NCBI GenBank assembly: GCA_965237415.1
Contig: CBDEFM010000002.1
Location: forward strand, 960,001-1,024,000
Direction of reading: 5' to 3'
Length of the DNA stretch: 64,000 nucleotides
From: Alphaproteobacteria bacterium
GTDB taxonomy: Bacteria; Pseudomonadota; Alphaproteobacteria; UBA828
Shown: positions 3,006-56,233 of the stretch, piece after piece
Layout: every line of letters starts with the position of its first letter
Position numbering within the stretch: position 1 is the stretch's first letter
Program-made: the position numbers and the translations under genes
The notes under the pieces: generated by a model
Seen by the model: the letters and a program-made list of their open reading frames with translations, nothing else
What the model was told of the DNA's origin: nothing
The model's database searches: none

Positions 3006-3007
3006 GT

Positions 3008-3565: not shown

Positions 3566-3575
3566 CGCGACAGCC

Positions 3576-4295: not shown

Positions 4296-4323
4296 CGCGG
4301 GCTCAGGTGCATTAGGCAGACGA

Positions 4324-5250
4324 TCAGGACTCGAGTTGTGCGGCAACTTCAGCGGCGAAATCCTTGCTCTCCCGCTCGATCCCTTCGCCCAGCTGGTAGC
4401 GGACGAAACCGCTCACCGCGACGGATGTGTCGAGCGTGCCGGCATGCGACTCCAGCACTGATTTCACCCGGGTCTCGCCGTCGATCACCCAGGTCTGCTC
4501 CAGGAGGACGACCTCCTCGAAGAACTTGCGCAGTCTGCCCTCGATCATCTTCTCGATGATGTTCTCGGGCTTGCCCTCGGCCCGCGCCTGCTCTGCGAGG
4601 ACCCCGCGTTCGCGCTCGACCATTGTCTGATCGAGCGAGTCGCGCGAGACCGCCTGCGGGCTCGCGGCGGCGATGTGCATGGCGAGCTCATGGGCGGGGC
4701 GCTCTAGGCTCTCAGTGGGCGCAGGGGACTCCACGGCGACCAGCACGCCGAGCCGGCCCAGACCCTCGGCGGTCGGCATATGAATGTAATCGCCGACGAC
4801 ACCCGCCGGCGTGGAAAGAACGACCGTCCGCCGCAGCTGGATGTTCTCGCCGATGGTGGCGACGAGGTTGGTGATCTCTTCGGCAACGGTGCGGCCGGCC
4901 CCCGGATAGGACGCCGCCGACAGACGCTCGAGATCGCCCTCGCAGTCCAACGCGATCCTGGCGACCTCGCGCACCACCGCCTGGAAATCAGCGTTGCGTG
5001 CAACGAAATCGGTCTCGGCGTTGATCTCGACCATCGCCGCCTTGCCCGGCGCCGTCGCCATCCCGATCAGCCCTTCCGCGGCAGTGCGCCCGGCCTTGCG
5101 CGCGGCCTGGGCGAGGCCGCTCTTGCGCAACCAGTCGACCGCGGCCTCCAGCTCACCGTCGGTCTCTGTCAGCGCCTTCTTGCAGTCCATCATGCCGGCG
5201 CCGGTCTTGTCGCGCAGTTGCTTGACCAGCGCGGCCGTAATCTGAGCCAT
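4324..5250 (-). CDS. tsf: Elongation factor Ts
   Basis: [19 protein letters not shown] and NAETDFVA. Confidence 0.98.
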
Positions 5251-5279
5251 CGTCCTCTACTCCCCGGTCCGAGGCGCGG

Positions 5280-6233
5280 TCACGCGCCCGCCGCCTGTTC
5301 TTCGCCGCCGCCTTCAGCCGCCTCGGGCGCCGGTGGCGCCGCGCCAGCATCGGCGGTGGTATCGGCGGGGGCATTGGGGGCCGCGTCGCCATCGGCCGGC
5401 GCTTCCTCGGCCACCTCGGCCGCGTCGCCATCGACCGGCGCCTCCTCGGCCGCCTCGGTCGCCTCGGTCGCGTCGCCATCGACCGGCGGCAGATCCTCGG
5501 CCAGGCCCTCTTCGGCAGCGCCGATATCGGCGCCCGAGGCGGCGAGCTCCACCTGAAGACCGTCGATGACCGCGCGAGCGAACAGGTCGCAATAGAGGTT
5601 GATCGCACGGATCGCATCGTCGTTGCCGGGAACCGGGTGGGTGATGAGGTCGGGGTCGCTATTGCTGTCGATGATCGCAACGACCGGGATGCCCAGCTTG
5701 CGCGCCTCCAGAATCGCGATGTCTTCCTTGTTCGTATCGATGACCACGAGCACGTCCGGCACACCGCCCATGTCGCGAATACCGCCTAGCGCGAGCTCGA
5801 GCTTGTTGCGGCGGCGGACCAGTCGCAGCATCTCTTTCTTGGTCAGGCCGGCGGCTTCGTCGGCCAGCGTCGCTTCGAGATCGGCGAGTGTCTTGATCGA
5901 GCCGGAAATCGCCTTCCAGTTCGTCAGCATCCCGCCCAGCCAGCGGTGATTGACATAGTACTGGCCGCAACGGCGGGCGGTCTCCGCGATCGGCTTGGAG
6001 GCCTGCCGCTTGGTGCCGACGAAGAGGATGCGCCCGCCCCCTGCGGCGACGTCGCGCAGCGCGACGAGCGCCTGATGCAGCAGGGGAACGGTCTGCTCCA
6101 GATCGATAACGTGAACGCCGTTTCGCACGCCGAACAGATAGGAGCGCATCTTCGGGTTCCAGCGCCGCGTCTGGTGCCCGAAATGAACACCGGCTTCGAG
6201 AAGCTGGCGCATGCTGAATTCTGGCAGAGCCAT
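5280..6233 (-). CDS. rpsB: 30S ribosomal protein S2 with acidic Ala/Glu-rich C-terminal tail
   Basis: [28 protein letters not shown] and PGNDDAIRA. Confidence 0.98.
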
Positions 6234-6335
6234 TGGCTGTCCTTTCTCCGGTTCCTCCTCCGCGGATCATGCCCCCGGCTAGGCCGGGCACCGGACCGGC
6301 ACGCTCCTCTTGAGTGCCGTCTTCCGCGTGTGAAT
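6234..6335 (-). promoter_or_regulatory. Structured rpsB 5' leader (putative S2 autoregulatory element)
   Basis: The minus strand reads ATTCACACGCGG...GGCAC/GTGCC stem...TGCCCGGC-CTA-GCCGGGGCA stem...CCGCG ahead of the RBS (AAAGGA). Its position matches the known rpsB leader; the function is inferred. Confidence 0.5.
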
Positions 6336-6402
6336 TCCTGCCCAAGGCAGGTGAGCGCTTGATAACGCCGGCGCCCCCGGTGCGCAAGGCCCGAACCTGA
6401 AC

Positions 6403-9400
6403 TCAGACAGGCCGCACCGCCGGGAGTTCGCGAACGTCGGAGACACCGCCAAGCCCGCCGATCTCGGCGCTGAGAGAAGGGCTGAGCGCATAGGCAGTGG
6501 GTAGCTCGATCTCGACCGTGACGGCGTCGCCGGTCTCGACGAAAATCGCGATGCGCCCGCTGCCCTCTTGCCGCTTCGCGAGAATCGCGCTCAGTGGCGC
6601 AAGCACGTCCGTATGGTGCACGTGCACTGCAAGGCCGGTCAGGTTTCGCGAGAGCCTCGCATCGAGATCGTCGAAGCTCTGTGCGGAGAGCTTGACGTCT
6701 TCGCCCTCCATACGGGCCTGCGCGGTCACCAGCACAGGCTTGCCGGGCTCCAGCACGCCGCGTCCGTCGCCGTAGGTCTCACGGAAGGCCGCCACCTCGT
6801 AACTGCCGCTCGGGTCGGAGAGCTGGATAAAGGCGTAGCGCCGCGAACCCGGCCCCCGCTCCCTCACCGAAAGCACCACCCCTGCGAGGCGGAAGCGGGT
6901 GACGCCCGACGCAAGCTGCTGTGCCACCTGAGCCGACGGAGTGACCGAGAGCCCTTTGAGCGCATCCACGTAGGAATCGAGCGGATGGGCGGAGAGATAG
7001 AAGCCCACCGCCTCTTGCTCGGCTGCCAGCCTCTCGTTCAGGTCCCAATCCTCCTGCTCCGGCAGGCTCGGCCGCGGCGCGAGCGTCGCATCGGTATCGT
7101 CGAAGAGCGAAGCCTGCGTGCACGAGAGCCGGGCCGCGCTGGAAAAAGCAAGGAGGACCTCGGCGCCGTCGGCTAACTGCCGGCGGTTTGACGTGAGGCT
7201 GTCGAAGGCGCCGGCCTTGGCCAGGTTCTCGATCTGGCGGCGGTTGATCTGGTGCGGATCGATGCGGCCGGCGAAATCGAAGGGATCGCGATACGGCCCG
7301 CTCTCGGCCCGCTCGTCCGCCAGTGCCGTCATCGCCTGAACGCCGACATTCCTGATCGCGCCGAGCGCGTAGCGGATCGCCTTGGTGCCGTCGGCCAGCT
7401 GCTCGACCGAGAACGTCGCCCTGGACGCGTTGATGTCGGGCGGCAGCAGAGGAATCCCAAGCCGCTCGAGCTCCCGGCGGAACAATTCGAGCCGGTCGAC
7501 ATTGTTGATCTCCAGGCTCATCGAAGCGGCCAGGAACTCGACCGGGTGGTTGGCCTTGAGGTAGGCGGTCTGGTAGGCGACCAGCGCGTAGGCCGCTGCG
7601 TGGGACTTGTTGAAGCCGTAGCCGGCAAATTTCGCGACCAGATCGAAGATGCGGCTGGCGTCGGCCCGTGCAACGTCGTTGGCGAGAGCGCCTTTGACGA
7701 AGGTCTCCCGCTGAGCGTCCATCTCCGCCTTGATCTTCTTGCCCATAGCGCGGCGCAGCAGATCTGCGCCACCCAGGCTGTAGCCGGCGAGAACCTTGGC
7801 AATCTCCATCACCTGTTCCTGGTAGATGATGACGCCGAAGGTCTCTTTGAGAATGCCGGTCAGCTTCGGGTGCAGATAGTCCGGCTTCTCGCGGCCGTGC
7901 TTGCAGGCGATGTAACGGGGAATGTTGTCCATCGGCCCGGGGCGATAGAGCGCGACGAGCGCGATGATGTCCTCGATACAGTCCGGCTTGAGGCTGCGGA
8001 GCGCGTCCCTCATGCCTGCGCTTTCCAGCTGGAAGACGCCCATCGCAGTACCGCGGCCCAGCATCTCGTAGGTGGCCTCGTCGTCGAGCGGGACAGAGGC
8101 GAGGTCGATCTCGACCCCGGCCTCGCGCAGAATTTCGCTCGCATCGTCGAGCACGGTGAGCGTCTTGAGGCCCAGCAGGTCGAACTTCACGAGCCCGGAC
8201 ATCTCGGCGTACTTCATCGAGAACTGTGTCGCCGGCATCTCCGAGCGCGGATCGCGATAGAGGGGCACCAGCTCGCTGAGCGGCCGGTCGCCAATGACGA
8301 TGCCCGCAGCATGGGTCGAGGCATGGCGGTACAGCCCTTCGAGCTGGAGCGATATCTCGATCAGGCGGGCGATTGTCGAATCGTTGTCGCGTTCGGTCGC
8401 GAGCCGGGGCTCGGTGTCGAGCGCTTGCTGCAGCGTCACCGGATTGGCCGGATTGTAGGGAACCAGCTTGCACAGACGGTCGACGCGGCCGTAGCCGAGT
8501 CCGAGCACACGGCCTACATCGCGGAGCACCGCGCGGGCCTGAAGCTTACCGAAGGTGATGATCTGGGCGACCCGGTCCTTGCCATAGCGCCGGCAGACAT
8601 AGTCGATGACCTCGTCGCGGCGCTCCGGGCAGAAGTCGATGTCGAAGTCGGGCATCGACACTCGTTCGGGATTGAGGAAGCGCTCGAACAGCAGGCCGAA
8701 GCGGAGCGGGTCGAGATCGGTGACGGTCAGCGCCCACGCCACCACCGAGCCGGCGCCCGAACCCCGGCCCGGGCCGACCGGGATCCCCTCTCCCCGCGCC
8801 CAGCGCACGATGTCGGCGACGATGAGGAAGTAGCCTGCGAACTGCATCTCGATGATGACGCCGAGCTCGTAGGCGAGCCGCTCCCGATAAGCCGCCGCCG
8901 CCGCCCCGCAGGCCGCGCTGTCCATATCGTCGCGGTAGACTTCGGCTTCTAGGCGGCGCTCCAATCCCTCCTTGGCCTCGGCGCGCAGCGTTTCGGCCTC
9001 GCTAGTGTCGCCGGCGGTAGTGAACGCCGGCAGGATCGGCTTCCTCACCGGCGCCATGACGGCGCAACGGCGGGCGATTACGACGGTGTTGTCCACGGCC
9101 TCCGGCACATCGGCGAAGAGCGCCCGCATCTCCTCTGCCGGGCGGAAGAAGTGCCGAGGGGTCAGGCGGCGCCGGTTCTCGTCCTCGACGTGGCTGTTCT
9201 GAGCCACGCAGAGCAAGACGTCGTGGGCCTCGTGCATCTCGGAGCGGAGGAAATAGACGTCGTTCGTCGCAACCAGCGGTAGATCGAGCTTGTCGGCAAG
9301 CTCGATCAGGTGCGCCTCGATCTGCTCCTCCTCCGCGAGGCCGTGGCGCATGAGCTCGACATAGAGCCGGTCCGGAAAGATCTCGCCAAGTCGCGCCAAG

Positions 9401-43291: not shown

Positions 43292-44512
43292 TCAATCCCG
43301 CGGCACGAAGCACTCGAGCCCGCGCGTCTTGAGTTGCGTGCAGACCCGCCGCGCCGCACCCGCGTCGCTGAGAGGGCCGGCGCGCAGCCGGTAGGTAATA
43401 CCGCTGTCGCCGCTATCGACCGGCATGATCAGTGGGCTGAGGCCGACGAGCACGTCATTGTGACGGCGGCGCAGCATCTCCCAGTGGCCTTCCAGCGCGC
43501 TCCGGGAGTTGGCGGCGCCGAGCTGGACGTAGCGCCACGTGCGGGAAGAATCCGACTGCACCGGCTCTGGCGCAGCGTCCCGCGCTTTCGAAGCGGCATC
43601 GTCGACCGGCCGCTCGGCCGGCGCGGTCCGCGCGAGGCTAACCGGCTTGTGGACGGGGAGCGGCACCGAGCCTACGTACTCCTGCCGAGCGTACTCCTCC
43701 CGTGCAGGGGCTGAAGATGTCTCAGCCTCTCGCTGCAGAATTTCCTCGACCAGGGCCAGCGTCTCCGGATCCAGCTGCGGTATTTCTTCGACTGTGGTCG
43801 GTGTCTCAGGCTCATGCGGCGGCGCTTCTTCGACCATGGCCGGCTCATCGAGATCCGGCAGAGGCGTTACATCGATCCGAATAGCGGCCAGCGTTCCGGG
43901 TTTCGGTGGATGCGGCCTCACGACCGCCTCAACCATCGGCGCTTCGGGTTCCGTTGCTTGAGGCTCAATTGCCTCTGGTTCTGGTGTCGGCGCCTCCTCG
44001 ATCGGGGCGGCTGCCGGCTCGTCGACGCCGCCTGCGTCCGGTTGCAGCGCGGCGGGGTCTCTCTCTACACCCGATGCTGCGACCGCCAGCTCTTCGGCGC
44101 GGTCGGCTTCAGGTTGCGGTGGACTCATGGGCTCTTCCGGCGGCGGCAGGACCCGCTCGGGCGCTTCCTCGGGGTCGGCCGTCGTCAGCGTCTCGTAAAT
44201 CAACGTGCCCTGGTTTGGAATTTCCATTCCGCCCGGATCAGCGGGACGGACCTTCCATGGCTCGGTCGACGCGGTGATGAGCCGCACCGAGGCCTCGTCG
44301 GGAGCAGGCGGCCCGCTCCCCATGTGCTCGGTCACCGCCCAGGCGCCACCCGAGAGCACCGCGGCGCCGAGAAGTATCCACACAGGAAGCAGCCGGGGGC
44401 GCCCGCTCTCCGCCGCTTCCCCGACGGCAGGCTCTGCTGGTTCCTGCGGCGGCTCCGGGCTCGGCGACTCGGGCGCCGACGGAGTCTCGGGGCCGTCTTC
44501 GCCGCCGCTCAT
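43292..44512 (-). CDS. SPOR domain membrane protein (FtsN-like)
   Basis: Single TM helix, KVRPADPGG motif, long Pro/Glu linker and a C-terminal SPOR domain (YVQLGA...YRLRAGP...C..L....ECF); lies between argS and nagZ. Confidence 0.85.
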
Positions 44513-46263
44513 CGCATCTCCTGCACCGGCTCGACTCCGAACAGTGCCAGCCCCTCCGCAATAACGATCTTGACGGCGCTTATCAATGCGAGCCGGGCGC
44601 GTGTCTCCGCCGGCCGCTTGCCATCGACGATGCGAAGCCGCGGGTCGTCCTTGCCCCTGGTCCAGAGCAGATGAAAGGCGCCCGCAAGGTCATGCAAATA
44701 AAAGGCGATCCGGTGCGGCTCGTGGGCGAGCGCCGCGCCGGCCAGCACCCGTGGCCATTGGCAGAGCAGGCGGATCAGGTCGAGCTCGGACGGATCGTCC
44801 AGGCACGTGAGGTCGACGCGGGCGAGAGCGGCAAGCGCAAGCTCGGGCTCGGGCACGATCTCTGCCCCGCGGCGCAGCGCCGAGCAGGCCCTGGCATGGG
44901 CATACTGAACGTAGAAGACAGGATTGTCCCGCGACTGCTCGGTAACCCGGTTGAGATCGAATTCGAGTGGCGCATCGTTGCGGCGGGTCAGCATGATAAA
45001 GCGGACGACGTCGCGCCCGACCTCATCGACAACATCCCGCAAGGTCACGAAGCGCCCGGCCCGCTTCGACATCGCCACCGGCTCGCCGCCGTCGAGCAAC
45101 TTCACCATCTGACATATCTTCACGTCGAGGCTCGCCGAATCGCCGGAAAGCGCTGATACAGCAGCCTTCATCCGCTTGACGTAGCCGCCGTGGTCTGCGC
45201 CCCAGACGTCGATCAGGTCGGTGAAGCCGCGCTCGATCTTGTCGCGGTGATAGGCAATATCGGTGGCGAAGTAGGTCCAGGTGCCGTCCGACTTCCTGAG
45301 CGGCCGGTCCGTATCGTCGCCGAAGACGGTGGCGCGGAAGAGACTCTGTTCGCGCGGCTCCCAATCCTCGTCGCGCTTGCCCTTGGGCGGCTCCGGCACG
45401 CCGCGGTAAATGAGATCGGCGGCCTCCAGTGCGGCGTACGCGTCGTCGACGCGGCCCTCGTCGACCAGCGCGCGCTCCGAGCGAAACAGATCGTGGCTCA
45501 CACCCAGCGCTTCGAGATCGGCTCGCACGAGGTCCATCATGGCGTCGGTGGCGAAGCGGCGGACCTCCGGCAGCCAGACCGATTCGGGCTCCTCCAGCCA
45601 GCGGCGACCGTCACGGGCCGCAAGCGCCTCGCCGACGGGCACCAGATAGTCGCCCGGATAGAGCCCCTCGGGGATGGCACCGATCGTCTCGCCGCACGCC
45701 TCGCGGTAGCGGGCGTGGACCGAGCGGGCCAGCGTATCGACCTGCGCGCCGGCGTCGTTCACATAATATTCGCGCGTCACCGCGAAACCCATATGCGAGA
45801 GCAGGTTGGCGAGGGCATCGCCCACCACCGCGCCCCTGGCGTGCCCGACGTGGAGCGGCCCCGTCGGGTTGGTCGAGACGTATTCGACATTGACCGGCCG
45901 GCCACGGCCGAGGTCTGTGGCGCCGTACCCTGGGCCGGTCTGGAGCAGTTCCGCCAGCCGCGCCCACCAGAACTCGTCCGTGAGCCGGAGGTTGACGAAG
46001 CCGGGGCCGGCCACTTCGACGGCACGAATGTCCGCGCGCCCGTCCAACCGTTCAGCCAGATGCTGGGCGATTTCGCGTGGCTTGCGTCGCGCCTGCTTGG
46101 CCAGGACCAGTGCCGCATTGCACGCCGCATCGCCGTGCTCCGCCTCGCGCGGAGGCTCGACAGAGACAGCCGAGAGATCGAGCCCGCGAGGCAGCAGGCC
46201 AGCCCCGCTCATCGCCTCAATCTCGACCTGAATAACATCTGACAAGTAGCTGAAAACATTCAT
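44509..46263 (-). CDS. argS: Arginine--tRNA ligase
   Basis: [28 protein letters not shown] and YVQYAHAR. Confidence 0.97.
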
Positions 46264-47471
46264 CTCCACAGCACCGTATCGAAGAGATTGCGATGTTCCT
46301 GGATGGCGAAGCGATCCGTCATTCCAGCAACGTAATCGGCGACGACGCGCGCCGTCGTCACCGTTCGCGCGCCGTCGCACCGGCCCCACCACTCCTCGGG
46401 CAGGCATTGGGGCTCGTCGACGAAAAGCTCGAAGAGCTCGCGCACGGTCCGGCGCGCCTTGCTAGCCATCCGGTTGACCTTGTGATGACGATACATGCGC
46501 TCGTGCAGGAATGCCTTCAAGGCCTCTCCCTGGGCCTGCATGGTCGCCGAGAAAGCGATCAGCGGCGCACCATGCCCGCGCACGGCCTCCGCGTCACTCG
46601 GCCTCGCCTCCTCCAGGCGCTGCCGGCTCGTATCGATCACGTCCTCGACCATGGTTCCGATCATGCGGCGAACGGTCTCGTGAATGAGGCGGCCCTCGTC
46701 GCCACCCGGATGGTCGGCGATTGCGTCATCGAGAATCGCGCCCACGAGAGGGACGTCCCGCACGTCGTCGACGGTGAAGAGGCCGGCGCGCAGCCCGTCA
46801 TCCACGTCGTGGTTGTTGTAGGCGATATCGTCGGCCAGCGCCGCGATCTGGGCCTCTGGGCCGGCATGGGTGTGGAGTTCCAGGTCGTGCCGGGCCGAAT
46901 AAGACTCGATGTCGCCGGGCACGGCATCCGGCGGCCGTGGGCCATTGTGCTTCGCCACCCCTTCCAGGGTCTCCCAGGTCAGGTTCAGGCCGTCGAAGCC
47001 GTTATAGCGGTGCTCCAGGGACGTCAGGATGCGTACGGTCTGGGCGTTATGGTCGAAGCCGCCGTAGGGCGCCATCGCTTGATCGAGCGCCGCCTCCCCG
47101 GCGTGACCGAAAGGCGGGTGCCCAAGATCGTGGGCCAAAGCAAGCGCCTCGGCGAGGTCTTCGTCCACACCGAGGACGCGGCTGATCGAGCGCGCAATCT
47201 GCGCGACCTCCAGGCTGTGGGTCAGCCGGGTGCGGTAGTGATCCCCCTCGTGATAGACGAAGACCTGGGTCTTGTGCTGCAGGCGCCGAAAAGCCGTGCA
47301 GTGGATGATCCGGTCGCGGTCGCGCTGAAAGGCCGTCCGAGTGCGGCTTTCCGGCTCCGGATAGAGGCGCCCGCGGCTCTGCTCGGGGAGTGAAGCATAG
47401 GGCGCCGCGGCGCGCCGCGTCGCCGGCGCATCCTCGATCGCCTCACTGGCGCTCGCGTCGCTCACGGTCAC
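46260..47471 (-). CDS. dgt: Deoxyguanosinetriphosphate triphosphohydrolase (HD domain)
   Basis: [33 protein letters not shown] and ADDIAY. Confidence 0.95.
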
Positions 47472-47980
47472 ATCTCGCCTGCGGGCCCGCGGATTGCGTG
47501 GAGCCGCTTCGTCGGCAGCTGGATCGGTGGCGGCACCGCGTAGAACGTGTGGACTTCTGGCGTCTCCTCCTCGGACTCGGCTGAATCGTTGCCCGGTTCG
47601 GTCGAGCGGATTACCACGTCGTGGCCCGAACGCCGCGTCTCGCGCATGACCGACTGAAGCCGCTGGGCGGCTGCCTGATCCCAGGGCAACGCGTAGAATC
47701 GCGGCGTTCCCTCGACGGAAAGCCAGAGATAGATGGCTTCGTCCTCGCGCAGTGCGGCCGAGAGCACTCGTGCGCCCGCCACATCGTCCAATTCGGGGGA
47801 GAGCATCTTCGGCCGCGAGAGCAGCATGGAATAGCTGAAATAGCCGACCACGACGAGGGCAGCGAGCAAACCCACGGCGGCGGCCTTCCAGAGCGCCCGC
47901 CGCCGGGACCAGACCGCAATACTCGCGAGCGCTGCGCCTACCAGCGCAAGGGCGACATAGAGGTAGGCGAAGCTATCCAC
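47468..47980 (-). CDS. Hypothetical membrane protein (two N-terminal TM helices, soluble domain, Pro-rich C-terminus)
   Basis: Overlaps both neighbours (GTGA overlap with dgt); two hydrophobic helices, IYLWL and PRFYALPW. Start at 47980 or 47995. Confidence 0.75.
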   Translation of the reverse strand: MDSFAYLYVALALVGAALASIAVWSRRRALWKAAAVGLLAALVVVGYFSYSMLLSRPKMLSPELDDVAGARVLSAALREDEAIYLWLSVEGTPRFYALPWDQAAAQRLQSVMRETRRSGHDVVIRSTEPGNDSAESEEETPEVHTFYAVPPPIQLPTKRLHAIRGPAGEM

Positions 47981-48617
47981 CCGGCCGCACCTCACGGGAG
48001 CGCAGCTGAGACTGGGCGTATTCCCGTATCAGCGAGAGCCTGACGTCGTTGACGCTGCCGTGCACGAGCGCGCCCTTGCCGGTCAACGCGAAGCGAAACA
48101 CGGTCGTCTCGTGGCGCGGATAGCGCAGCTCGACCTCCTTTTCCAGGATCGGCGTCGGCCTGTTCTCGCCCTCGCGCTTGACGCTGACAACCACCTGCAC
48201 CTGTACCGGAACCGGCTGGATCGGATCCTCCAGGCGGTAGGCCTGGACATTGACGATCCATTCGCCAGGCACGATGCCCCGACTGTAGACAATCTCGTAA
48301 TTGATGTCGGTAAGGTCTTGAAACAAGCCGAGATCGTCGCGCAATAGATTGACCACCTCGTTGCCCTTGTTGGGGAAGCCGACCGGCAACCTGTCCGGCG
48401 CCTTGACCCAGAGATCGATATCGGCGTCGCGATCGGCCGCCCACACAAGCTCGATGATCACATTGCCGGGATCGCTGATCCCTTCGGCCTCGCTCTCGGC
48501 TTCGGCACCCGGATTAAGGAACGGCAACAGCATGAGCACCATCGCGACGAAGGCTGCGAGCGCCAACAGAGTGACATCGCGGAAGATCGTGCCGCTGTCG
48601 TCGTCAAACTCGTCCAT
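47973..48617 (-). CDS. Single-pass membrane protein with an ExbD/TolR/MotB-like TM aspartate and an uncharacterised extracytoplasmic domain
   Basis: IFRDVTLLALAAFVAMVLMLLPF helix, then IELVW...DADIDLWVKAPD and LLRDDLG; coupled to the upstream MotA/ExbB-like gene. Confidence 0.75.
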   Translation of the reverse strand: MDEFDDDSGTIFRDVTLLALAAFVAMVLMLLPFLNPGAEAESEAEGISDPGNVIIELVWAADRDADIDLWVKAPDRLPVGFPNKGNEVVNLLRDDLGLFQDLTDINYEIVYSRGIVPGEWIVNVQAYRLEDPIQPVPVQVQVVVSVKREGENRPTPILEKEVELRYPRHETTVFRFALTGKGALVHGSVNDVRLSLIREYAQSQLRSREVRPGG

Positions 48618-49197
48618 CGGCCGCGAGGAGCTCGCTGTAGAGGGTGGCGGTGCCGGTCGCCAGCATACGGTAGTTGACGGTGAGCCACAGGCCCAGCACG
48701 GCGCCCTCCAGGGTCGTGTAAAGCGCGACCGACATGCCGCTGATAAGGGTCGAAATCATCGGCTGTACGGCAGCGAGCGTGCCCGCATCCTCCGCCGAAA
48801 CCCCGGAGAGCGCGATGATGAAACCGGTCACGGTGCCGATCAGACCGAGCACGACGAGCGCGGAGGCGATCTGCCGCACCACCGCGATGCGGCTGAAGAG
48901 GCGTGCCTTGAGCGCCTCGGCCATAAACTCCGGGCGAACGGGCGTACGGGTCCAGGCCATCGGGAGGTCTACGGTCCCGTCTGCCTCCAGCCTGTTGAGG
49001 GCAGCGCTTGTCTTGAACAGACGGTATCCGCAGAGCGCGAGGCCCACCGCGAAGACGCCGAAGATGACGAAGACGAGGCCGGTGGGATCCGCCTCTACGA
49101 GCCGGGCAAGCCAGCCCTGTGCGCCCGCGAGCCCGAGCAGGGCTGCGCCCACGATATTGACGATAAGGAACCGGTAGAGGAGCAGGTAGCGGCGCAA
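48604..49197 (-). CDS. MotA/TolQ/ExbB proton channel family protein
   Basis: LVVLGLIGTVTGFIIAL and GMSVALYTTLEG channel-helix signatures; four hydrophobic segments; AGGAG ahead of a TTG start. Confidence 0.85.
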   Translation of the reverse strand: MRRYLLLYRFLIVNIVGAALLGLAGAQGWLARLVEADPTGLVFVIFGVFAVGLALCGYRLFKTSAALNRLEADGTVDLPMAWTRTPVRPEFMAEALKARLFSRIAVVRQIASALVVLGLIGTVTGFIIALSGVSAEDAGTLAAVQPMISTLISGMSVALYTTLEGAVLGLWLTVNYRMLATGTATLYSELLAADGRV

Positions 49198-49392
49198 CCG
49201 GTCGACTCCTGCGTCGTGACGGCGGCCGGCCCGCGCGGGCGCACCACGCCCGGAGCCTGTTTCGGACGGTCTATCGAACGCAGGCCCCTGTCAATGGCCG
49301 TGTCCCGATCAGGGCATTTGCGAGCGAGATCAACCAAAACGGCGTTGCGCGGTTTATCATGCCCGCGATCTCCCACGTCCGGAGGCATCTGA

Positions 49393-50532
49393 ATGATCGC
49401 GGCCGACGCCTTCCTGGAACCGGCGCAGGAACGGGGGTTCTCGTTCTACGCCGGTGTCCCCTGCTCGTTCCTGACCCCGCTGATCAACCGGGTGATCTCT
49501 GCCCCCGCGCTCAACTACGTCGGCGCGGCGAGCGAGGGCGAGGCCGTGGCGGTGGCGGCGGGCGCCTGGATGGCAGGGCGGCGCACGGTCGTGATGTGCC
49601 AGAACTCCGGCCTCGGCAATACCGTCAACCCGTTGACCTCCCTCAACCACCCCTTCCGCATCCCGACGCTCCTGATCGTCACCTGGCGCGGCCAGCCGGG
49701 GCTCAAGGACGAGCCGCAACACGAACTGATGGGCAAGGTGATGGGATCGCTCCTCGACACGATCGCCATCGGCCACGCCGGCTTCCCCAAGGAGGCCGAC
49801 GTCGTGGCGGTGGCGCTCGATCGGGCCGAGCGGGCCATGGCGGCGGACGAGTTGCCGTTTGCGCTGATCATGGAGAAGGGCAGCGTTCGCGACGACGGCC
49901 TCGATCAACCGGATCAACCGATCCACCCGCGGGGCGAGGTCGCGGACCTGCGTCAGGGTGGCGAACGGCCCGCGCGGATCGATCTGCTGCGCTGCGTTCA
50001 GGCGCTTGTGCCGGCGGCGGCCGCTGTCGTGGCGACCACCGGCAAGACGGGGCGCGAGCTCTTTACCTGCGAGGACCGCTCGCAGCAGCTCTATCAGGTG
50101 GGCTCCATGGGCTGCGCGTCGGCGATGGGCCTCGGCGTTGCCCTCAACACAGAGCGCCCGGTGGTGGTGCTGGACGGCGACGGCGCGGCGCTGATGAAGC
50201 TCGGTACCATGGCGACCATCGGCGCCCACGCGCCTGACAATCTGATCCATGTCGTGCTCGACAACGGCGTGCACGATTCGACCGGCGGGCAAGCGACCGT
50301 CTCGCCCAATGTGAATTTCGCGGCCGTCGCCCAAGCCTGCGGCTACCCGCGCAGCTTTCGCTGCGACAGCCAGGCAGGCTTCGCCCGCGCGCTGGAGACC
50401 GCCTTCGACGAAGGCCCGAGGCCAGTGCTGATTCATGCGTTGATCTCGCCCGGCTCCCTCGCCGAGCTGGGCCGGCCCACGATCGCGCCCCGCGACGTGG
50501 CACGGCGCTTCCGCTCCTTCTTGGCGGGATGA
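49393..50532 (+). CDS. aepY: Phosphonopyruvate decarboxylase-like ThDP enzyme (single chain)
   Basis: AGVPCSFL, SEGEAV, QNSGLGN, DEPQH, GSMG, DGDGAALM and NGVHDSTGGQ. Confidence 0.8.
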   Translation: MIAADAFLEPAQERGFSFYAGVPCSFLTPLINRVISAPALNYVGAASEGEAVAVAAGAWMAGRRTVVMCQNSGLGNTVNPLTSLNHPFRIPTLLIVTWRGQPGLKDEPQHELMGKVMGSLLDTIAIGHAGFPKEADVVAVALDRAERAMAADELPFALIMEKGSVRDDGLDQPDQPIHPRGEVADLRQGGERPARIDLLRCVQALVPAAAAVVATTGKTGRELFTCEDRSQQLYQVGSMGCASAMGLGVALNTERPVVVLDGDGAALMKLGTMATIGAHAPDNLIHVVLDNGVHDSTGGQATVSPNVNFAAVAQACGYPRSFRCDSQAGFARALETAFDEGPRPVLIHALISPGSLAELGRPTIAPRDVARRFRSFLAG

Positions 50533-50691
50533 CTCGGTTCGGCCTGAGCGGGGGAGCGCCAGACCCCCGTCGCCGAGGCGCGCCGATGCGCTGGAAAACG
50601 GGCGAAACCTTCGCGCCGAGATTCGACAGCATGTATATGGCCGCCATTGACGTGTATTATTTCGACATCGAAATCGCAGGGAGGACAAGTC

Positions 50692-51693
50692 ATGAAGCTT
50701 CTGAGACTCACGACGTGCGCGCTGGCCGCGGCGGCCCTCATGGGCCTGACCCTCGGCACCGCCGGCGAGGCGAGCGCGCAGGAGAAGAGGTTTATCTCCA
50801 TCGGTACCGGCGGCCCGACCGGCGTCTATTTCGTGGTCGGCAACTCGGTCTGCCGCATGGTCCACAAGGAGGCCGCGGAGGGCCGCAAGTCGGGCCGCAA
50901 GCACGGCATCCGCTGCGCTGCGCCGTCCACCGGCGGCTCCACCTACAACATCGGCCAGATCTGCCAGGGCGAGCTCGACTTCGGCGTCGCCCAGTCCGAC
51001 TGGCAGTTCCATGCGGTCAACGGCAGCTCCGAGAAGGTCACGAACTGCCCCGGCCTGCGCGCGGTTTTCTCCGTGCACGGCGAGCCCTTCCATCTGATCG
51101 CCGCCGACGGGTCGGAGATCGGTTCCTTCACCGACACCAAGGGCAAGCGTGTCAACATCGGCAACCCCGGCTCGGGCCAGCGCGGCACGACCGAGGTGCT
51201 GATGGAAGGCTACGGCATCACTGCCGACGACTTCGCGGTGGCGACCGAGCTGACCTCGACCGAGCAGTCCCAGGCGCTCTGCGACGGCAAGATCGACGCC
51301 TATGGCTACACCGTCGGCGTGCCGAATGCCGGCGTGTCCGTGGCGACGGACGGCTGCAGCGCCTACATCGTCAACCTCACCGGCGAGGTCGAACAGAAGC
51401 TGGTGGCGGACAATCCCTACTACGCCTTCACGACCATCCCCGCTGGCACCTACAAGACCACCGAGGCGGACGTGACGACCTTCGGCGTGATGGCGACCTT
51501 CGTCAGCCACGAGAACGTGCCCGAGGATGTGGTCTACGAGGTCACCCGTGCGGTGATGGAGAACCTGGAGGACTTCCAGAATCTGCATCCCGCCTTCGCC
51601 AACCTCGATCCGGCGAACATGATCAAGAACGGCCTCTCGGCACCGCTCCATCCGGGTGCGGCGAAGTACTACACGGAACAGGGCTGGATGTAG
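50692..51693 (+). CDS. TAXI family TRAP transporter solute-binding protein
   Basis: Signal peptide, IGTGGPTGVY, STGGSTYN, QSD, GNPGSG and PLHPGAAKYY. Confidence 0.92.
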   Translation: MKLLRLTTCALAAAALMGLTLGTAGEASAQEKRFISIGTGGPTGVYFVVGNSVCRMVHKEAAEGRKSGRKHGIRCAAPSTGGSTYNIGQICQGELDFGVAQSDWQFHAVNGSSEKVTNCPGLRAVFSVHGEPFHLIAADGSEIGSFTDTKGKRVNIGNPGSGQRGTTEVLMEGYGITADDFAVATELTSTEQSQALCDGKIDAYGYTVGVPNAGVSVATDGCSAYIVNLTGEVEQKLVADNPYYAFTTIPAGTYKTTEADVTTFGVMATFVSHENVPEDVVYEVTRAVMENLEDFQNLHPAFANLDPANMIKNGLSAPLHPGAAKYYTEQGWM

Positions 51694-51705
51694 CCCTCCG
51701 GTCCT

Positions 51706-51739
51706 GGCGGCCGGCATCCCGCAACGGGTGCCGGCCGTT
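51706..51739 (+). terminator. Intergenic stem-loop after the TAXI gene (terminator or mRNA stabiliser)
   Basis: GGCGGCCGGCATCC pairs with GGGTGCCGGCCGTT, followed by a weak T-rich tail. Confidence 0.5.
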
Positions 51740-51801
51740 AGCTTTCTGACTGTCCCGAGGCGGGCGGCACGAGGGGACGAACGCGCCGGAATGGGGCGCC
51801 C

Positions 51802-54180
51802 GTGACGAATAGCGATCCCAGCGCGGCGGCCACAGCTGCCGATGTCGACAAGACCCTGGAGAAGGTCGAGTACCAGGGGCGTCGGCAGGGGCCGCGGCTG
51901 GCCATTGTCGTCAGCCTGCTGTGCTTCCTGTGGTCGATCTATCAGCTCTGGATCGCCTCTCCCCTCCCCTTCATGCTCGATTTCGCCATCATCGGCGATG
52001 TCCGCGCGCGCGGCATTCACCTCGCGTTCGCGCTGCTGCTCTGCTTCCTGATGTATCCGCTCTCGCGCCGCTGGGGCGAGCGGGGCCTGCCGCCCTGGGA
52101 CATCGCCTGCGCCGCGGTCGGCTGCCTCGCCGCCTTCTACCTGTTCATCGGCTGGGACGGCCTGGTCTCGCGCCACGGCATCCTCTACGTCTGGAACGGC
52201 ATTCCGGTGGAAGCCATCCTCGGCGGCGTCGGCATGCTGCTGCTGCTCGACGCCACGCGGCGGGCGATCGGCATTCCGCTGGTCGCCGTCTGTGCGGTCT
52301 TCCTGGTCTATTCGATCTTCGGCCAGTCGATGCCGGATATCGTGTCCCACAAGGGGCTGAGCCTGAACCGGCTGATCGGCTACCAATGGCTGACCGGTGA
52401 AGCGGTCTTCGGCATCCCCATCAGCGTCTCGGTCAGCTTCGTGTTCCTGTTCGTGCTGTTCGGCGCGCTGCTCGACAAGGCCGGCGCCGGGAAATATTTC
52501 CTCGCCCTCTCCTTCGCCATGGTGGGGCGTTACAGCGGCGGGCCGGCCAAGGCGGCGATCCTGGCGTCCGGCATGACCGGCATGATCTCCGGCTCCTCGA
52601 TCGCCAATGTCGTCACCACCGGCACCTTCACGATCCCCGTCATGCGGCGGATCGGCATGCCTGCGGTGAAGGCTGGCGCCATCGAGGTCGCGGCCTCGAC
52701 CAACGGCCAGCTCATGCCGCCGATCATGGGAGCCGCCGCCTTCATCATCGCCGAGTTCATCGGCATCTCGTATTTCGAGGTGGTCGCGGCCGCGGCGATC
52801 CCCGCCGCGCTCAGCTATATCGCGCTGCTCTACATCTCCCATCTGGAGGCGAAGAAGCTCGGCCTCTCCGGCCTGCCCCGCGCGGAGATCCCGCCGCTGC
52901 GCACGACCTTCCTCAGCGGCGCGCACCACCTGATCCCCATCGTCATCCTGGTCTATTTGTTGATGGTCGAACGCTGGAGCGCGCACAGCGCGGTCTTCTA
53001 CTCGATCCTCTCGGTGATGGCGATCATCGTCGCCCGGCGGATCGTCGCGTCCGTCCGCGGCGGCGGCCAGCCCCTGGGCGAGGCGCTGCGCGACGGCTTC
53101 ACCGAAATCTATGTCGGCATGGTGGCGGGCGCGCGCAACATGGTGGGAATCGCCGTCGCCGTGGCCGCCGCCGGCATCATCGTCGGCGCCGTCTCCTCGA
53201 CCGGCCTCAACAACGCCATGGTCGGCGTGGTCGAGGCGATCGCCGGCGGCAACGTCTACATCCTGCTGGGGCTGACCGCGATCCTCTGCATCGTCCTCGG
53301 CATGGGTCTGCCGACCACCGCCAACTACCTGGTGGTCGCCTCCCTGCTGGCGGGCGTGCTGGTCGAGCTGGGCAACGCATCGGGACTGGTCCTGCCGCTG
53401 ATCGCCGTCCACCTCTATGTCTTCTATTACGGTCTGCTGGCGGATTCGACGCCACCCGTCTGCCTTGCCGCCTTCGCGGCCTCGGCCATATCCAGGGCCG
53501 ACCCGCTGAAGACCGGCGTGCAGTCCTTCATGTACGACATCCGCACGGCCATCCTCCCGCTGGTCTTCCTGTTCAACACGGAGCTGCTGCTGATCGGCAT
53601 CGAGAGTATCTGGCAAGGCGCCCTGGTGGTTGTCATGTCGCTGCTCGCGATCCTCGCCTTCAGCTCGCTCACCCAGGGCTGGATGTTCGTCAAGGTGCGC
53701 TGGTACGAGGCGGTGCTGCTCGCGGCGGCCTGCTTCATGCTGTTCCGCCCCGACTTCTTCATGGACGAGATCGCCCCGCCCTTCCAGCCGATCGCATTCG
53801 AAGCCTTCGCCTCCGGCGAATTCACGCCAGAGCCCGGCCGCTCCGTCCGCCTGCACGTGACGCGCGAGACCAACTACGGCGAGCGCTTCAAGCTGTTCGT
53901 GCTGGAGACCCCGGCGGCGCAGGCGGCAACGCCGGCGGCGACCTTCGGGGTCGGGCTCGCGCGCGAGGACGACGGCCGCTATGCGGTGGTGGACATCGCC
54001 TTCGAGGGGTTGGGGGAGAAGGCGGGCATCGACTGGGGCGACTATGTCACCGGCGTCGACGTGGAGCAGGTCGACCTGCCGCCCAAGGAGCTCATCTATC
54101 CCGCCGGCCTGGCGGTGCTGGGCCTGGTCTTCTTCTCGCAGCTCATGCGCGGCCGGCGCGCGGCCCGCGCGTCGCCGTGA
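51802..54180 (+). CDS. TRAP transporter fused 4TM/12TM permease
   Basis: GGPAKAA, SGSSIANVVTTG, PPIMGAAAF, GMGLPTTANY and TPPV. Confidence 0.93.
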   Translation: MTNSDPSAAATAADVDKTLEKVEYQGRRQGPRLAIVVSLLCFLWSIYQLWIASPLPFMLDFAIIGDVRARGIHLAFALLLCFLMYPLSRRWGERGLPPWDIACAAVGCLAAFYLFIGWDGLVSRHGILYVWNGIPVEAILGGVGMLLLLDATRRAIGIPLVAVCAVFLVYSIFGQSMPDIVSHKGLSLNRLIGYQWLTGEAVFGIPISVSVSFVFLFVLFGALLDKAGAGKYFLALSFAMVGRYSGGPAKAAILASGMTGMISGSSIANVVTTGTFTIPVMRRIGMPAVKAGAIEVAASTNGQLMPPIMGAAAFIIAEFIGISYFEVVAAAAIPAALSYIALLYISHLEAKKLGLSGLPRAEIPPLRTTFLSGAHHLIPIVILVYLLMVERWSAHSAVFYSILSVMAIIVARRIVASVRGGGQPLGEALRDGFTEIYVGMVAGARNMVGIAVAVAAAGIIVGAVSSTGLNNAMVGVVEAIAGGNVYILLGLTAILCIVLGMGLPTTANYLVVASLLAGVLVELGNASGLVLPLIAVHLYVFYYGLLADSTPPVCLAAFAASAISRADPLKTGVQSFMYDIRTAILPLVFLFNTELLLIGIESIWQGALVVVMSLLAILAFSSLTQGWMFVKVRWYEAVLLAAACFMLFRPDFFMDEIAPPFQPIAFEAFASGEFTPEPGRSVRLHVTRETNYGERFKLFVLETPAAQAATPAATFGVGLAREDDGRYAVVDIAFEGLGEKAGIDWGDYVTGVDVEQVDLPPKELIYPAGLAVLGLVFFSQLMRGRRAARASP

Positions 54181-54217
54181 CGGGCGTGCACGGCGAGGCA
54201 GCCCCCTCACCCTTCGG

Positions 54218-56233
54218 CTAAAGCGTGCGGCACAGGCGGAACGCGTCGAGCACCGCGGCGTAGATGTTGCGGCTGGAGACCGCGTCCCCGATGCGGAAAA
54301 GCCGGAAGCCATCATCCGCCGCCTCCGGCTGCGGCGCGCCCGCGAGCAGAGCCTGCTGATCGACGGCGCCCCGGTTCGAGGAGCGATCCACGAGGCCGTG
54401 AAAGAGCGCGTCGGCCGGGCGCGTCCCGTGCTCGACCACGATGCGGCCGGTCTCGTGCTCCTCCGCCTCGTCCGTAAGCTCGTTGCGGAACGTCACGCGC
54501 AGCCGGTTGCCCTCGCGCGCGATACGCTCCAGGCGCCGGTCGAGCCTGGGCTCGATGCCGATCTCGTAGGTTCGCCGCCGCCAGACGACCTGCTCTGCGT
54601 AGGACATCTCCATCGCGAGATGCCCGTCGAGGCCGAAGAACTCGACCCCTCCGCCCGCCTGCCTGATCGCCTCCGCCGCCGTGAGCGCCGCGTGGCGGCC
54701 GGTCCCGTCGTAGACGATCGAGTCCTCGCCCGCGCTCACCGCGCCCGTGAGCACATCCCAGACGCTGGTGCAGTGCGCGGCGCCATCGATCCAGTCGAGA
54801 TCGGGGACTCCGCCGGTCGCGACGATGACGACATCGGCCTGCTCCGCGCCGATCGAGTCGGGCTCAACGCGCGAACTAAGGCGAACCTCCGCCCCAAGCC
54901 GCTCCAGCTCACGGGCACGCCATTCGACGATGCCGGTGAGCTCGCTCCGCCAGCTTGCCTGCGCGGCCAGCAGCACCTGCCCGCCGAGCCTTTCCGACGC
55001 TTCGCAGAGCCGCACGTCGTGGCCCCGCTCGGCGCACACCCGCGCGGCCTCCAGCCCGGCCGGCCCGCCGCCCGCGACCAGCACGCGGCGCTTCTTGCCG
55101 GCGCGCTCGATCGCGTGCGGCAACGCCGCCTCGTGGCCGGTGGACGGATTGTGAATGCAGGTGGGGCGCTGCGGGCTCATGCAATGGGTGGCCCCCACGC
55201 AGGGGCGCACGCGCTCTTCCTCCCCACTCGCGAGCTTGGCCACCAGATCAGGGTCCGCGATGTGCGCGCGGGTCATCGCCACCATGTCGAGCAGGCCCTC
55301 GCGGATCGCGTGCCGCGCCGTCTCCAGCGACGTGATGCGCGTCGCGTGAAAGACGGGCAGCCCCACCGCCTGCTTGAAGGCCCCGGCGCGCGCCAGGAAC
55401 GGCGCCTCGGCTGAGGCCATGCCCGGCATGCAGTCCACGGCGAGCTTGAGCTCCGTGTCGATGCGTCCGTAGATCGCGTTGAAGAAGTCGATGGTGCCCG
55501 ATGCCTCGAAGATGGCGGCGATCTTCAGGCCGTCCTCGAAGGTGATGTGGTGCGGGCCGGCCTCATCGATGAGGAAGCGCATGCCGACGATGAAGTCCTC
55601 GCCCACGCGCTTGCGGATCGCCTCGTGCACCATCAGCCCGAAGCGGCAGCGGTTCTCGACCGAGCCGCCGAACTTGTCGCTGCGGCGATTGGTCGCCGGC
55701 GAGAGGAATTGGCCGATGAGGTGCGCGCCGGCGAAGGTCTCGATGCCGTCGAGCCCGCCCTCCTTGCACCGCGCCGCCGCCTCGGCGAAGTCGGCCACGA
55801 CGCGCGCGATGTCGCGCTCGTCCATTTCCCTCGCGAAAGCCCGATGCAATGTCTCGCGTACGGGCGAGGGACCGATGGGCGCGAGCGCCGCGCCCGCATA
55901 GGGCTCGCCCCGCCCGCCGACATGGCTTACCTGGCACATGAGACGTGCGCCGTGGGCGTGGATGCGCCGCGAGAACCGCTGGAAGCGCTCGACGACTCGC
56001 TCGTCGTAGAGGTTGATCTGCGGCAGTTGCCACGCGGACTCGGGCGAGACGTTGGACGAGCCGCCGAACATGGTGAGCGCGATCCCGCCCTTCGCCTTCG
56101 TCTCGTGATAGCGCTGGTAGCGCTCGCTCGGCATGCCGCCCTCGGCGAGACCGCAGGCGTGGCTCGTGCTCATGATGCGGTTCTTGAGGGTGAGGTGCTT
56201 CAGCCTGAAGGGCCGGAGCAGCGGATCGCTCAC
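54218..56233 (-). CDS. NADH:flavin oxidoreductase (OYE-like plus Rossmann domain), N-methylproline demethylase-like
   Basis: DPLLRPFRLKHLTLKNRIMSTSH, GQFLSP..NRRSD.FGGS, RPCVGATHC...CIHNP and GGGPAGLEAA. Start at GTG 56233 or 56284. Confidence 0.88.
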   Translation of the reverse strand: MSDPLLRPFRLKHLTLKNRIMSTSHACGLAEGGMPSERYQRYHETKAKGGIALTMFGGSSNVSPESAWQLPQINLYDERVVERFQRFSRRIHAHGARLMCQVSHVGGRGEPYAGAALAPIGPSPVRETLHRAFAREMDERDIARVVADFAEAAARCKEGGLDGIETFAGAHLIGQFLSPATNRRSDKFGGSVENRCRFGLMVHEAIRKRVGEDFIVGMRFLIDEAGPHHITFEDGLKIAAIFEASGTIDFFNAIYGRIDTELKLAVDCMPGMASAEAPFLARAGAFKQAVGLPVFHATRITSLETARHAIREGLLDMVAMTRAHIADPDLVAKLASGEEERVRPCVGATHCMSPQRPTCIHNPSTGHEAALPHAIERAGKKRRVLVAGGGPAGLEAARVCAERGHDVRLCEASERLGGQVLLAAQASWRSELTGIVEWRARELERLGAEVRLSSRVEPDSIGAEQADVVIVATGGVPDLDWIDGAAHCTSVWDVLTGAVSAGEDSIVYDGTGRHAALTAAEAIRQAGGGVEFFGLDGHLAMEMSYAEQVVWRRRTYEIGIEPRLDRRLERIAREGNRLRVTFRNELTDEAEEHETGRIVVEHGTRPADALFHGLVDRSSNRGAVDQQALLAGAPQPEAADDGFRLFRIGDAVSSRNIYAAVLDAFRLCRTL

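Follow-up and report, generated by a model that had tools for sequence, protein, structure and literature searches.

A conserved three-gene membrane module shared by bacteria and phages, and its reading as a minimal motor of the MotA/ExbB kind

A 64,000-nucleotide (nt) stretch of DNA from an Alphaproteobacteria bacterium of lineage UBA828 (assembly GCA_965237415.1, contig CBDEFM010000002.1, positions 960,001 to 1,024,000; hereafter the window) contains three overlapping minus-strand genes, g1, g2 and g3. From the analysis reported here, we consider it fairly probable that the products of this trio form an inner-membrane machine that is complete in itself, belongs to the MotA/ExbB ("5:2 motor") kind and delivers its output in the periplasm. 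A first-pass annotation, made from the letters alone, had drawn attention to the three genes and quoted the motifs LGLIGTVTG and ALYTT in g1 and FRDV at the start of the sole hydrophobic helix of g2. All of these were found in the open reading frames (ORFs) at the coordinates below.

g1, positions 48604-49197, minus strand: 197-amino-acid (aa) ORF with a TTG start; a minimal MotA/ExbB-superfamily protein, A-subunit-like
g2, positions 47973-48617, minus strand: 214-aa ORF with an ATG start; a B-subunit-like protein
g3, positions 47468-47995, minus strand: 175-aa ORF; the third membrane protein

The g1 and g2 ORFs share 14 nt. The overlap between g2 and g3 is 23 nt as listed, or 8 nt if g3 starts, as is probable, at the GTG at 47980, the position where its relatives begin and which gives a protein of 170 aa.

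Membership of g1 in the superfamily was established with Pfam MotA_ExbB (PF01618), which it matches over residues 94-185 (E 2.6e-9; 37.3 bits against a cut-off of 22.9); a PF01618 search of the genome scores it at 38.5 bits. The models of the named subfamilies are all matched far below their cut-offs: 18.8 bits against 221 for NCBIfam tolQ (TIGR02796), a model on which the real TolQ of this genome reaches 273.5 bits; 12.2 against 206.2 for exbB (TIGR02797); 10.6 and 9.3 against 341 and 373 for the MotA/PomA models NF006527 and NF005237; and 19.3 against 100 for ZorA_2 (NF033915). The best PADLOC match is a ZorA model (27.6 bits). When a profile of 23 family members was compared with the PDB, the best match was MotA 8gqy (E 1.5e-4), followed by 8vvn (E 0.009), and no ExbB or TolQ chain was among the 10 matches at E<=10. 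Direct alignment of g1 with the TolQ of this genome by hhalign gave E 6e-5 and a probability of 65%.

Hydropathy and charge predict for g1 an N-in topology with four helices, three of them strong and the fourth (around residues 150-175) assigned from homology only. The predicted cytoplasmic loop between transmembrane (TM) helices TM2 and TM3 is basic and only ~45 aa long, and the protein ends ~22 residues past the last helix, without a long C-terminal cytoplasmic tail. Conservation is concentrated in the motifs LGLIGTVxGF (TM3) and GMSVALYTTL (TM4); T122, T162 and 25 further columns are invariant in a 21-row alignment, and at least 90% of rows (21-23 rows) retain T161. A hidden Markov model (HMM) built for g1 gave 251-298 bits for family members and 61 for one distant relative; none of the other PF01618 paralogues from five genomes exceeded 27.4 bits. 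A quick maximum-likelihood tree of 45 rows has a branch that separates the 23 g1-type sequences, phage and out-of-class versions included, from the 22 paralogues; 10 of these 22 are named by NCBIfam as TolQ, ExbB, TolQ/ExbB-like, MotA or PomA-like. The suggestion in the first-pass annotation that g1 stands apart from the canonical families thus agrees with the NCBIfam scores, the PDB profile matches, the g1 HMM and the tree, in which g1 does not nest within ExbB, TolQ or MotA clades. These comparisons support the assignment of g1 to a separate branch of the MotA/ExbB superfamily rather than to canonical ExbB, TolQ or MotA.

The g2 protein has an acidic N-terminus and, by hydropathy, a single TM helix at residues 15-33. 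Directly before this helix, R13-D14 is invariant in alignments of 22 and 21 rows, and the pattern F-x-D-[LVM] at the helix start is kept in 8 of 9 aligned distant or phage relatives, so that the Asp singled out earlier as a potential ion-binding residue is indeed a conserved feature of the family. When g2 was aligned with the TolR of this genome by hhalign, only the helix was matched, over 18 columns, with Asp placed onto Asp.

The remainder of g2, which would form a periplasmic head, contains ELVWAADRDADIDLWVKAP, the motif that had been quoted as reminiscent of DUF2135-type domains, and its conserved motifs are DxDLWV..P and NLLRDDLG. No match to g2 was found in Pfam or NCBIfam (E<=1), PADLOC or PHROGs. 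An AlphaFold2 model (mean predicted local distance difference test score (pLDDT) 75.4) consists of the helix and a beta-sandwich, in agreement with the earlier view that the head is neither of the ExbD/TolR nor of the OmpA-like type. The segment 85-106, in which the conserved DxD and RDD motifs and NLLRDDLG, the best conserved motif of all, are found, was modelled below pLDDT 50, as might be expected of a loop that becomes ordered only with a ligand or partner. The best Foldseek match of the model was MmpS5 (E 0.016), a wide VIA-align search returned assorted beta-sandwiches including TerD, subtilisin C-domains and PLAT, and comparison of the g2 profile with PDB sequences gave chance-level rows only (E >= 0.095). 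The likeness to DUF2135 was borne out by profile comparison: the g2 profile aligned with residues 945-1026 of P0278 (hhalign 96.5%, E 8e-10), a 1064-aa VIT-TPR-DUF2135 protein in which Pfam places DUF2135 (PF09906) at 999-1046. The two share D-I-D-L-W-V..P....VGYSNK and GEY.V.V.LY. In the ESM Atlas the nearest named clusters to g2 were DUF2135 (0.83) and PPC (0.82), which serve as leads only, and searched on its own g2 gives no match to the Pfam DUF2135 model at E<=1. Because DUF2135 has no known function, this likeness names a fold family and not an activity.

For g3, the two TM helices and the Pro-rich tail described by the first-pass annotation are both present. Hydrophobic helices at residues 5-23 and 36-54 form a TM hairpin, and the loop between them (24-35) is basic, with four K/R and no D/E; by the positive-inside rule, both ends and the C-terminal domain would lie in the periplasm. 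The hairpin is followed by a conserved LLSRPKP motif, a beta3-alpha-beta2 unit and the Pro-rich tail, ...FYAVPPPIQLPTK. In the AlphaFold2 model (pLDDT 80.6) the domain is beta-beta-beta-alpha-beta-beta and resembles an oligonucleotide/oligosaccharide-binding (OB) fold. Foldseek matched it to the eIF5A C-domain (E 0.045) and to AB5 toxin B subunits (E 0.048-0.5), which is a likeness of fold only, and in the wide VIA-align search the TM hairpin fills the list (Z <= 8.0), so that the periplasmic domain was hardly probed. No match to g3 was found in Pfam, NCBIfam, PADLOC or PHROGs. The proposal that g3 is the equivalent of TonB or TolA found no support: besides its two TM helices, g3 has no His among the invariant or near-invariant columns of the family alignments and no SHLS-type motif, and hhalign aligned nothing between g3 and the TolA of this genome. 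The sole longer form of g3 that was found is a g3-dgt read-through product, the 569-aa protein P0272 of a close relative (82% identity to g3), in which g3 is joined to the HD and HD_assoc domains of the downstream gene dgt; it is either the result of read-through or frameshifting at the 4-nt overlap of the two genes or a real fusion.

The three genes keep company far beyond this genome. In a scan of one genome per species, at least 577 loci with a g2 relative were found, and 80 of these were kept for the analysis of synteny. The order g1-g2-g3 is present in 77 of the 80, the exceptions being two short contigs (L072 and L097) and one locus (L077) in which g2 alone was seen. The distant version L017 and four of the five distant loci L103-L107, including genomes outside the class, keep the gene order as well; in L103 g3 was not detected. 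Relatives of g2 number 855 in a protein collection clustered at 90% identity, and a search of a representative library at 50% identity yields 1940 g2-type clusters (E<=1e-3), with lengths almost always between 185 and 235 aa. Across orders, g2 retains ~50% identity, which is unusually high. The distribution is patchy: carriers make up 28 of 41 near relatives, 42 of 301 sampled genomes of the class (35 of 248 genera) and 17 of 401 sampled genomes of the phylum, five of them outside the class. A cultured Azospirillum, A. oleiclasticum RWY-5-1-1 (L056), is among the carriers. Taken with the viral loci described below (the full trio in 38 of 54 contigs), the survey shows that, as far as gene order and sequence similarity tell, the trio is conserved far beyond chance and is passed on as one block by bacteria and phages alike, across deep divergence, as the first-pass annotation had led us to look for.

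No fourth gene is common to the divergent loci, the next clusters occurring in at most 14 of 64. The commonest other neighbours are lineage-specific housekeeping genes (ABC-F ATPase, malate synthase G, SDR and a BON-LysM protein). The linkage to dgt, argS, the SPOR gene and nagZ, from which coupling to dgt-argS and, with the M50 peptidase gene, a role in the envelope had been proposed, was found in 16 of the 80 loci (L020-L034 and L037), all from close relatives, and therefore says little about function. We take the association of the trio with dgt-argS, as seen in this genus, to be a matter of local gene order and not a functional coupling. Of the original interpretation, then, the separate branch, the Asp, the co-occurrence of the genes and the nature of the g2 head are supported, and g3 as TonB/TolA and the link through dgt-argS to the envelope are not.

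Variants of the arrangement were seen in several places. Tandem trios or additional g2 genes occur in L013/L075 (genome G028), L014 (G027), L041, L018 (G026), L065, L071, L086, L089, L091 and L099, and several marine-type contigs have a lone g2 paralogue a few kilobases (kb) upstream of a full trio. Three proteins of 378-490 aa (P0273, P0276 and P0277) have a g1-type region (PF01618) ahead of a g2 region, and such joined products fit a physical association of the two.

Phages carry the trio as well. A tblastn search with g2 matched nine cultured rhizobiophage records; the same search with g3 gave no phage match, and the phage g3 proteins were found by profile comparison only. In the Sinorhizobium meliloti phage 16-3, p038 corresponds to g1 (hhalign 94.5%, E 8e-8), p040 to g2 (99.9%, E 1e-36) and p042 to g3 (97.3%, E 1.6e-11), in the bacterial order with small ORFs in between. 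The order is also kept in RHph_X2_25, where a 141-aa protein matches g1 (98.8%; Pfam MotA_ExbB, 23.2 bits). The phage g1 proteins are ~140 aa long, with four helices and without the cytoplasmic loop. At least 54 viral contigs in IMG/VR have g2 relatives; HMMs found the full trio in 38 of the 54, g1 and g2 in 8, g2 and g3 in 6 and g2 alone in 2. PHROGs gave no match for the trio of the window or for p038, p040 and p042 of phage 16-3.

The surroundings of these loci are genuinely those of phages, but they differ from one locus to another. On one 62.8-kb viral contig (L141), the trio lies at 2685-9172 between the portal (phrog_145) and major head (phrog_212) genes, unlike its early-gene position in 16-3-like phages; other phage trios adjoin exonuclease or SbcD-like genes, a methyltransferase gene, a protease gene or a DNA-transfer gene. 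A gene for a trypsin-like protease of periplasmic type lies directly upstream of the g1-like gene in 11 of the 54 viral loci (for example at 3924-4673 of L150) and in both cultured phages examined (2160-3059 of L100 and 2589-3236 of L101). In bacteria, a homologue of this protease was found in 3 of 80 loci, on the opposite strand, and none adjoins the trio of the window; the protease was accordingly rejected as a member of the window's module.

How such a trio might work can be proposed by analogy with MotAB, ExbBD, TolQR and ZorAB, for which complexes of an A-subunit ring with B-subunit helices have been solved. A pentamer of g1 would surround a dimer of g2 helices, and protonation and deprotonation of the g2 Asp beside the Thr residues of TM3 and TM4 of g1 would convert ion flow into rotation or a power stroke. 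Since g1 is almost without a cytoplasmic domain, and phage g1 lacks even the loop, it is the g2 heads that would do the work, in the periplasm. The g3 protein would probably be an accessory or adaptor placed at the periphery of the ring.

Several observations weigh against this motor reading. The complex, its stoichiometry, the ion flow and the rotation are all argued by analogy, from the genes alone. At 37 bits, g1 matches Pfam modestly; hydropathy leaves its fourth helix under the threshold, and distant and phage relatives have Lys or Asn in place of the TM3 Thr. The branch that parts g1 from the canonical families is weakly supported (Shimodaira-Hasegawa-like approximate likelihood ratio test, 65), and the paralogues in the tree were drawn from five genomes only. 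The likeness between the g2 and TolR helices is non-significant (18 columns, E 0.059, probability 0.9%). The fold matches of g2 (VIA Z <= 6.5) are generic and name no family, those of g3 are likewise generic (Foldseek E >= 0.045), and g3 has no detectable likeness to a known motor accessory in Pfam, NCBIfam or the TolA comparison. The fused g1-g2 products form clusters of one or two members and could be assembly frameshifts, and the contigs from ribonucleic acid (RNA) libraries described below cannot prove a single transcript or its strand, deoxyribonucleic acid carry-over being uncontrolled. A prediction of the g1, g2 and g3 complex at 1:1:1 scored 0.00, which counts neither way.

As to the biological role, we speculate that hosts and phages use the trio for an envelope-level function, such as altering or guarding the envelope during infection. 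The high conservation, the lack of an effector and the fixation in a housekeeping operon point to a function in the envelope, and the patchy distribution, the carriage by phages and the duplications point to phage-host conflict. A more specific proposal, which we regard as possible but doubtful when all of its parts are taken jointly, is that the trio is a new minimal class of rotary motor traded by bacteria and phages, with an A subunit without a cytoplasmic face, an axle head of the DUF2135 type that probably binds metal, and an OB-fold g3 that may form a periplasmic ring, and that phages would deploy it early in infection to reshape or protect the envelope of the host, as in the exclusion of superinfecting phages.

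Among the alternatives, the one that deserves most attention is that the trio is a phage-conflict module, acting in superinfection exclusion or in a Zorya-like defence, in which a membrane motor senses or blocks a breach of the envelope and the copies in bacteria stem from phage genes through domestication or exchange. This is compatible with the motor mechanism, and the best subfamily-level matches of g1 are indeed to ZorA (the PADLOC model at 27.6 bits, NCBIfam ZorA_2, and PDB 8vvn and 8qyh). It would account for g2 relatives in nine cultured rhizobiophage records and 54 viral contigs, for the patchy occurrence in class and phylum (42/301 and 17/401 genomes), for tandem duplications and lone additional g2 copies, for variable gene neighbourhoods, and for the position of the phage trio among early and DNA-metabolism genes. 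However, no effector domain (nuclease, NTPase and the like) accompanies the trio in the loci surveyed, g1 with its 197 aa lacks the long ZorA tail, g2 has no Pfam match to a peptidoglycan-binding domain, and PADLOC has no match to g2 or g3. The unusual conservation of g2 across orders and the stable fixation of the trio at the head of a housekeeping operon in this genus (16 loci) also speak for something other than a conflict system, and we rate conflict as an unlikely, though serious, explanation, which is nonetheless our leading guess at the role.

Two further explanations seem to us very improbable. If the trio were a divergent Ton/Tol energiser, g1, g2 and g3 would correspond to ExbB/TolQ, ExbD/TolR and TonB/TolA and would power an outer-membrane transporter or tether. 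The layout of three genes with one type of membrane anchor each, the hhalign match of g1 to TolQ, the motif-level resemblance of the g2 and TolR helices and the Pro-rich tail of g3 are all as this would have it. The individual proteins are not: the tolQ and exbB scores of g1 are a small fraction of the cut-offs, no ExbB or TolQ chain is among its PDB profile matches, and hydropathy and charge give it four TM helices with the N-terminus inside, against the three-TM layout of ExbB/TolQ; g2 has no ExbD domain in Pfam; and g3, with two TM helices and no conserved His, is unlike TolA. Moreover, no TonB-dependent receptor, Pal or TolB gene consistently adjoins the trio in the loci surveyed, and phages carry it. 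The other proposal is that the trio is no motor at all, but a passive channel or a holin/spanin-like set of phage origin for lysis or permeabilisation, the likeness of g1 being structural only. The short four-helix phage g1 (~140 aa), the N-terminal anchor and periplasmic domain of g2, which recall the layout of an i-spanin, and the many phages that carry the trio would suit such a set. It would not be expected from the conservation of the TM Asp and the channel-helix motifs across bacteria and phages, or from a trio that stably heads a housekeeping operon and is covered by environmental RNA-library contigs; in the phages, no endolysin gene was seen among the adjoining genes examined, and the trio lies among early genes and not in a lysis cassette.

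Set beside known machines, the trio under the motor reading combines features of several. With TolQRA and ExbBD-TonB it shares three co-encoded inner-membrane proteins, an A subunit with Thr-bearing channel helices, a single-TM B subunit with an Asp near the cytoplasmic end and an expected periplasmic output. It differs in that g1 is far below the TolQ and ExbB models and apparently has four TM helices, the head of g2 is a beta-sandwich related to DUF2135, g3 combines a TM hairpin and an OB-like domain and has neither an SHLS/His motif nor a TonB/TolA C-domain, and no outer-membrane partner accompanies the genes. MotAB/PomAB provide the best solved-structure sequence match of g1 (MotA 8gqy), and the topology of MotA is likewise 4-TM and N-in; however, g1 lacks the large cytoplasmic torque-generating domain of MotA, having only the ~45-aa loop that is absent from phage g1, and g2 lacks the plug, the linker and the OmpA-like peptidoglycan-binding domain of MotB. 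ZorA-ZorB of Zorya shares with the trio the best subfamily-level matches of g1 and a broad association with phage-host conflict, but g1 scores far under the ZorA_2 cut-off and has no long cytoplasmic tail, no effectors of the ZorC/D/E type lie nearby, and g2 and g3 have no PADLOC match. In GldL-GldM and PorL-PorM, the B-type subunit is an N-terminal TM helix followed by periplasmic beta-sandwiches, and the output is periplasmic, as proposed for the trio. GldL has two TM helices, the arrangement of the charged residues is different, and no sequence match to GldL or GldM was obtained in the Pfam and NCBIfam searches or in the PDB comparisons with the g1 and g2 profiles. The C-terminal DUF2135 domain of VIT/TPR proteins (YfaP-like) shares motifs with g2, which scores below the Pfam model of that domain.

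The closest published concept is the pairing of 'trans-pore-helix' vWA proteins with TolQ-like pentamers (Williams-Jones et al. 2025, PMC12204202). In the part of that work devoted to trans-pore helices, as here, a channel gene occurs without tolR or exbD, and its partner joins a TolR-like, Asp-bearing helix to an unrelated head (PMC12204202). The head there is a vWA domain and the partner pairs are heterologous, whereas here the head is related to DUF2135 and g3 has no Asp-bearing helix (PMC12204202). The trio family is not mentioned in the main-text trans-pore-helix section (PMC12204202), nor described in main-text parts of the FIT/GIT survey of MotAB relatives (PMC12505986).

No description of the trio was found by full-text searching of the literature, which covers main texts and not the supplements in which the family could be listed, and a term search of the AP-16-3 paper gave no mention of p036-p042, MotA or transmembrane proteins. 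The family has no curated model, and g2 and g3 belong to no curated family.

Ion-driven 5:2 motors power flagella, Ton/Tol transport, gliding, type IX secretion and Zorya defence, and with every branch added to them, another means of harnessing membrane energy for work beyond the cytoplasm has come to light. The trio is among the smallest versions of such a motor seen, and it is widespread, occurring in at least 577 species-level genomes, in 1940 clusters at 50% identity and in at least 54 viral contigs. Once its target is found, the 'hypothetical' membrane proteins of this large family, and a DUF2135-type domain, would acquire a role, and it would become apparent why phages carry a membrane motor of their own; if true, the minimal-motor reading would be the first functional context for DUF2135. 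Since the trio is present in the model phage 16-3 and in a cultured Azospirillum, it is directly testable by genetics and cryo-electron microscopy.

In the window, g1 heads a run of same-strand genes. Downstream of the trio, Pfam identifies dgt (HD and HD_assoc; 46260-47471, overlapping g3 by 4 nt), argS, a gene for a SPOR protein, the GH3 gene nagZ, an M50 peptidase gene and scpB, and the neighbours that the first-pass annotation had named (dgt, argS, SPOR, nagZ and M50) were each matched. Upstream of g1 lie the following features.

Positions 49198-49392, no strand assigned: intergenic region from g1 to the divergent gene; presumed promoter region of the operon headed by g1
Positions 49393-50532, plus strand: thiamine pyrophosphate (TPP)-enzyme gene (Pfam), divergent from g1 and upstream of it

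No sigma-70-like promoter site was found in a scan of 41-50 kb, so a promoter 5' of g1 is assumed from the gene layout only. A terminator scan of the same interval gave two terminator-like sites, both within argS and fewer than in shuffled sequences. The GC content is mildly lower across the trio (0.636-0.642) than in the flanks (0.66-0.70). In line with the first-pass annotation, no Ton, Tol or flagellar gene was seen among the ORFs read between 35.9 and 54 kb, of which 13 were scanned with Pfam (3 without a family match) and the others judged from the ORF list. The genome has two PF01618 genes, g1 and the true tolQ (273.5 bits), which is followed by tolR and tolA; this tolQ-tolR-tolA cluster lies ~419 kb from the trio on the same contig, at positions 1425714-1429028 (L110). 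By PF01618 no ExbB or flagellar MotA was found in the genome, and other flagellar genes were not searched for.

The trio is matched at >=95% identity by contigs of four metatranscriptome libraries (two studies); these cover it, span the g1/g2, g2/g3 and g3/dgt junctions and lend weak support to its expression. These contigs leave some stretches uncovered, for example beyond ~49306, and all four runs have an extra C after 49225, in the intergenic region 5' of g1, which may be a strain difference or a homopolymer assembly error.

Two ORFs near the trio call for comment. The longest ORF of argS (44509-46407, minus strand) runs ~148 nt into the end of dgt; since Arg_tRNA_synt_N starts only at residue 57 of this ORF, the start of argS is probably further downstream. 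A 1652-aa ORF at 49357-54315 on the minus strand is antisense to the TPP-enzyme gene and to the plus-strand ORFs 50647-51693 and 51802-54180; its translation is of low complexity and rich in Arg, Gly and Asp, and the frame is very probably spurious, a product of the high GC content.

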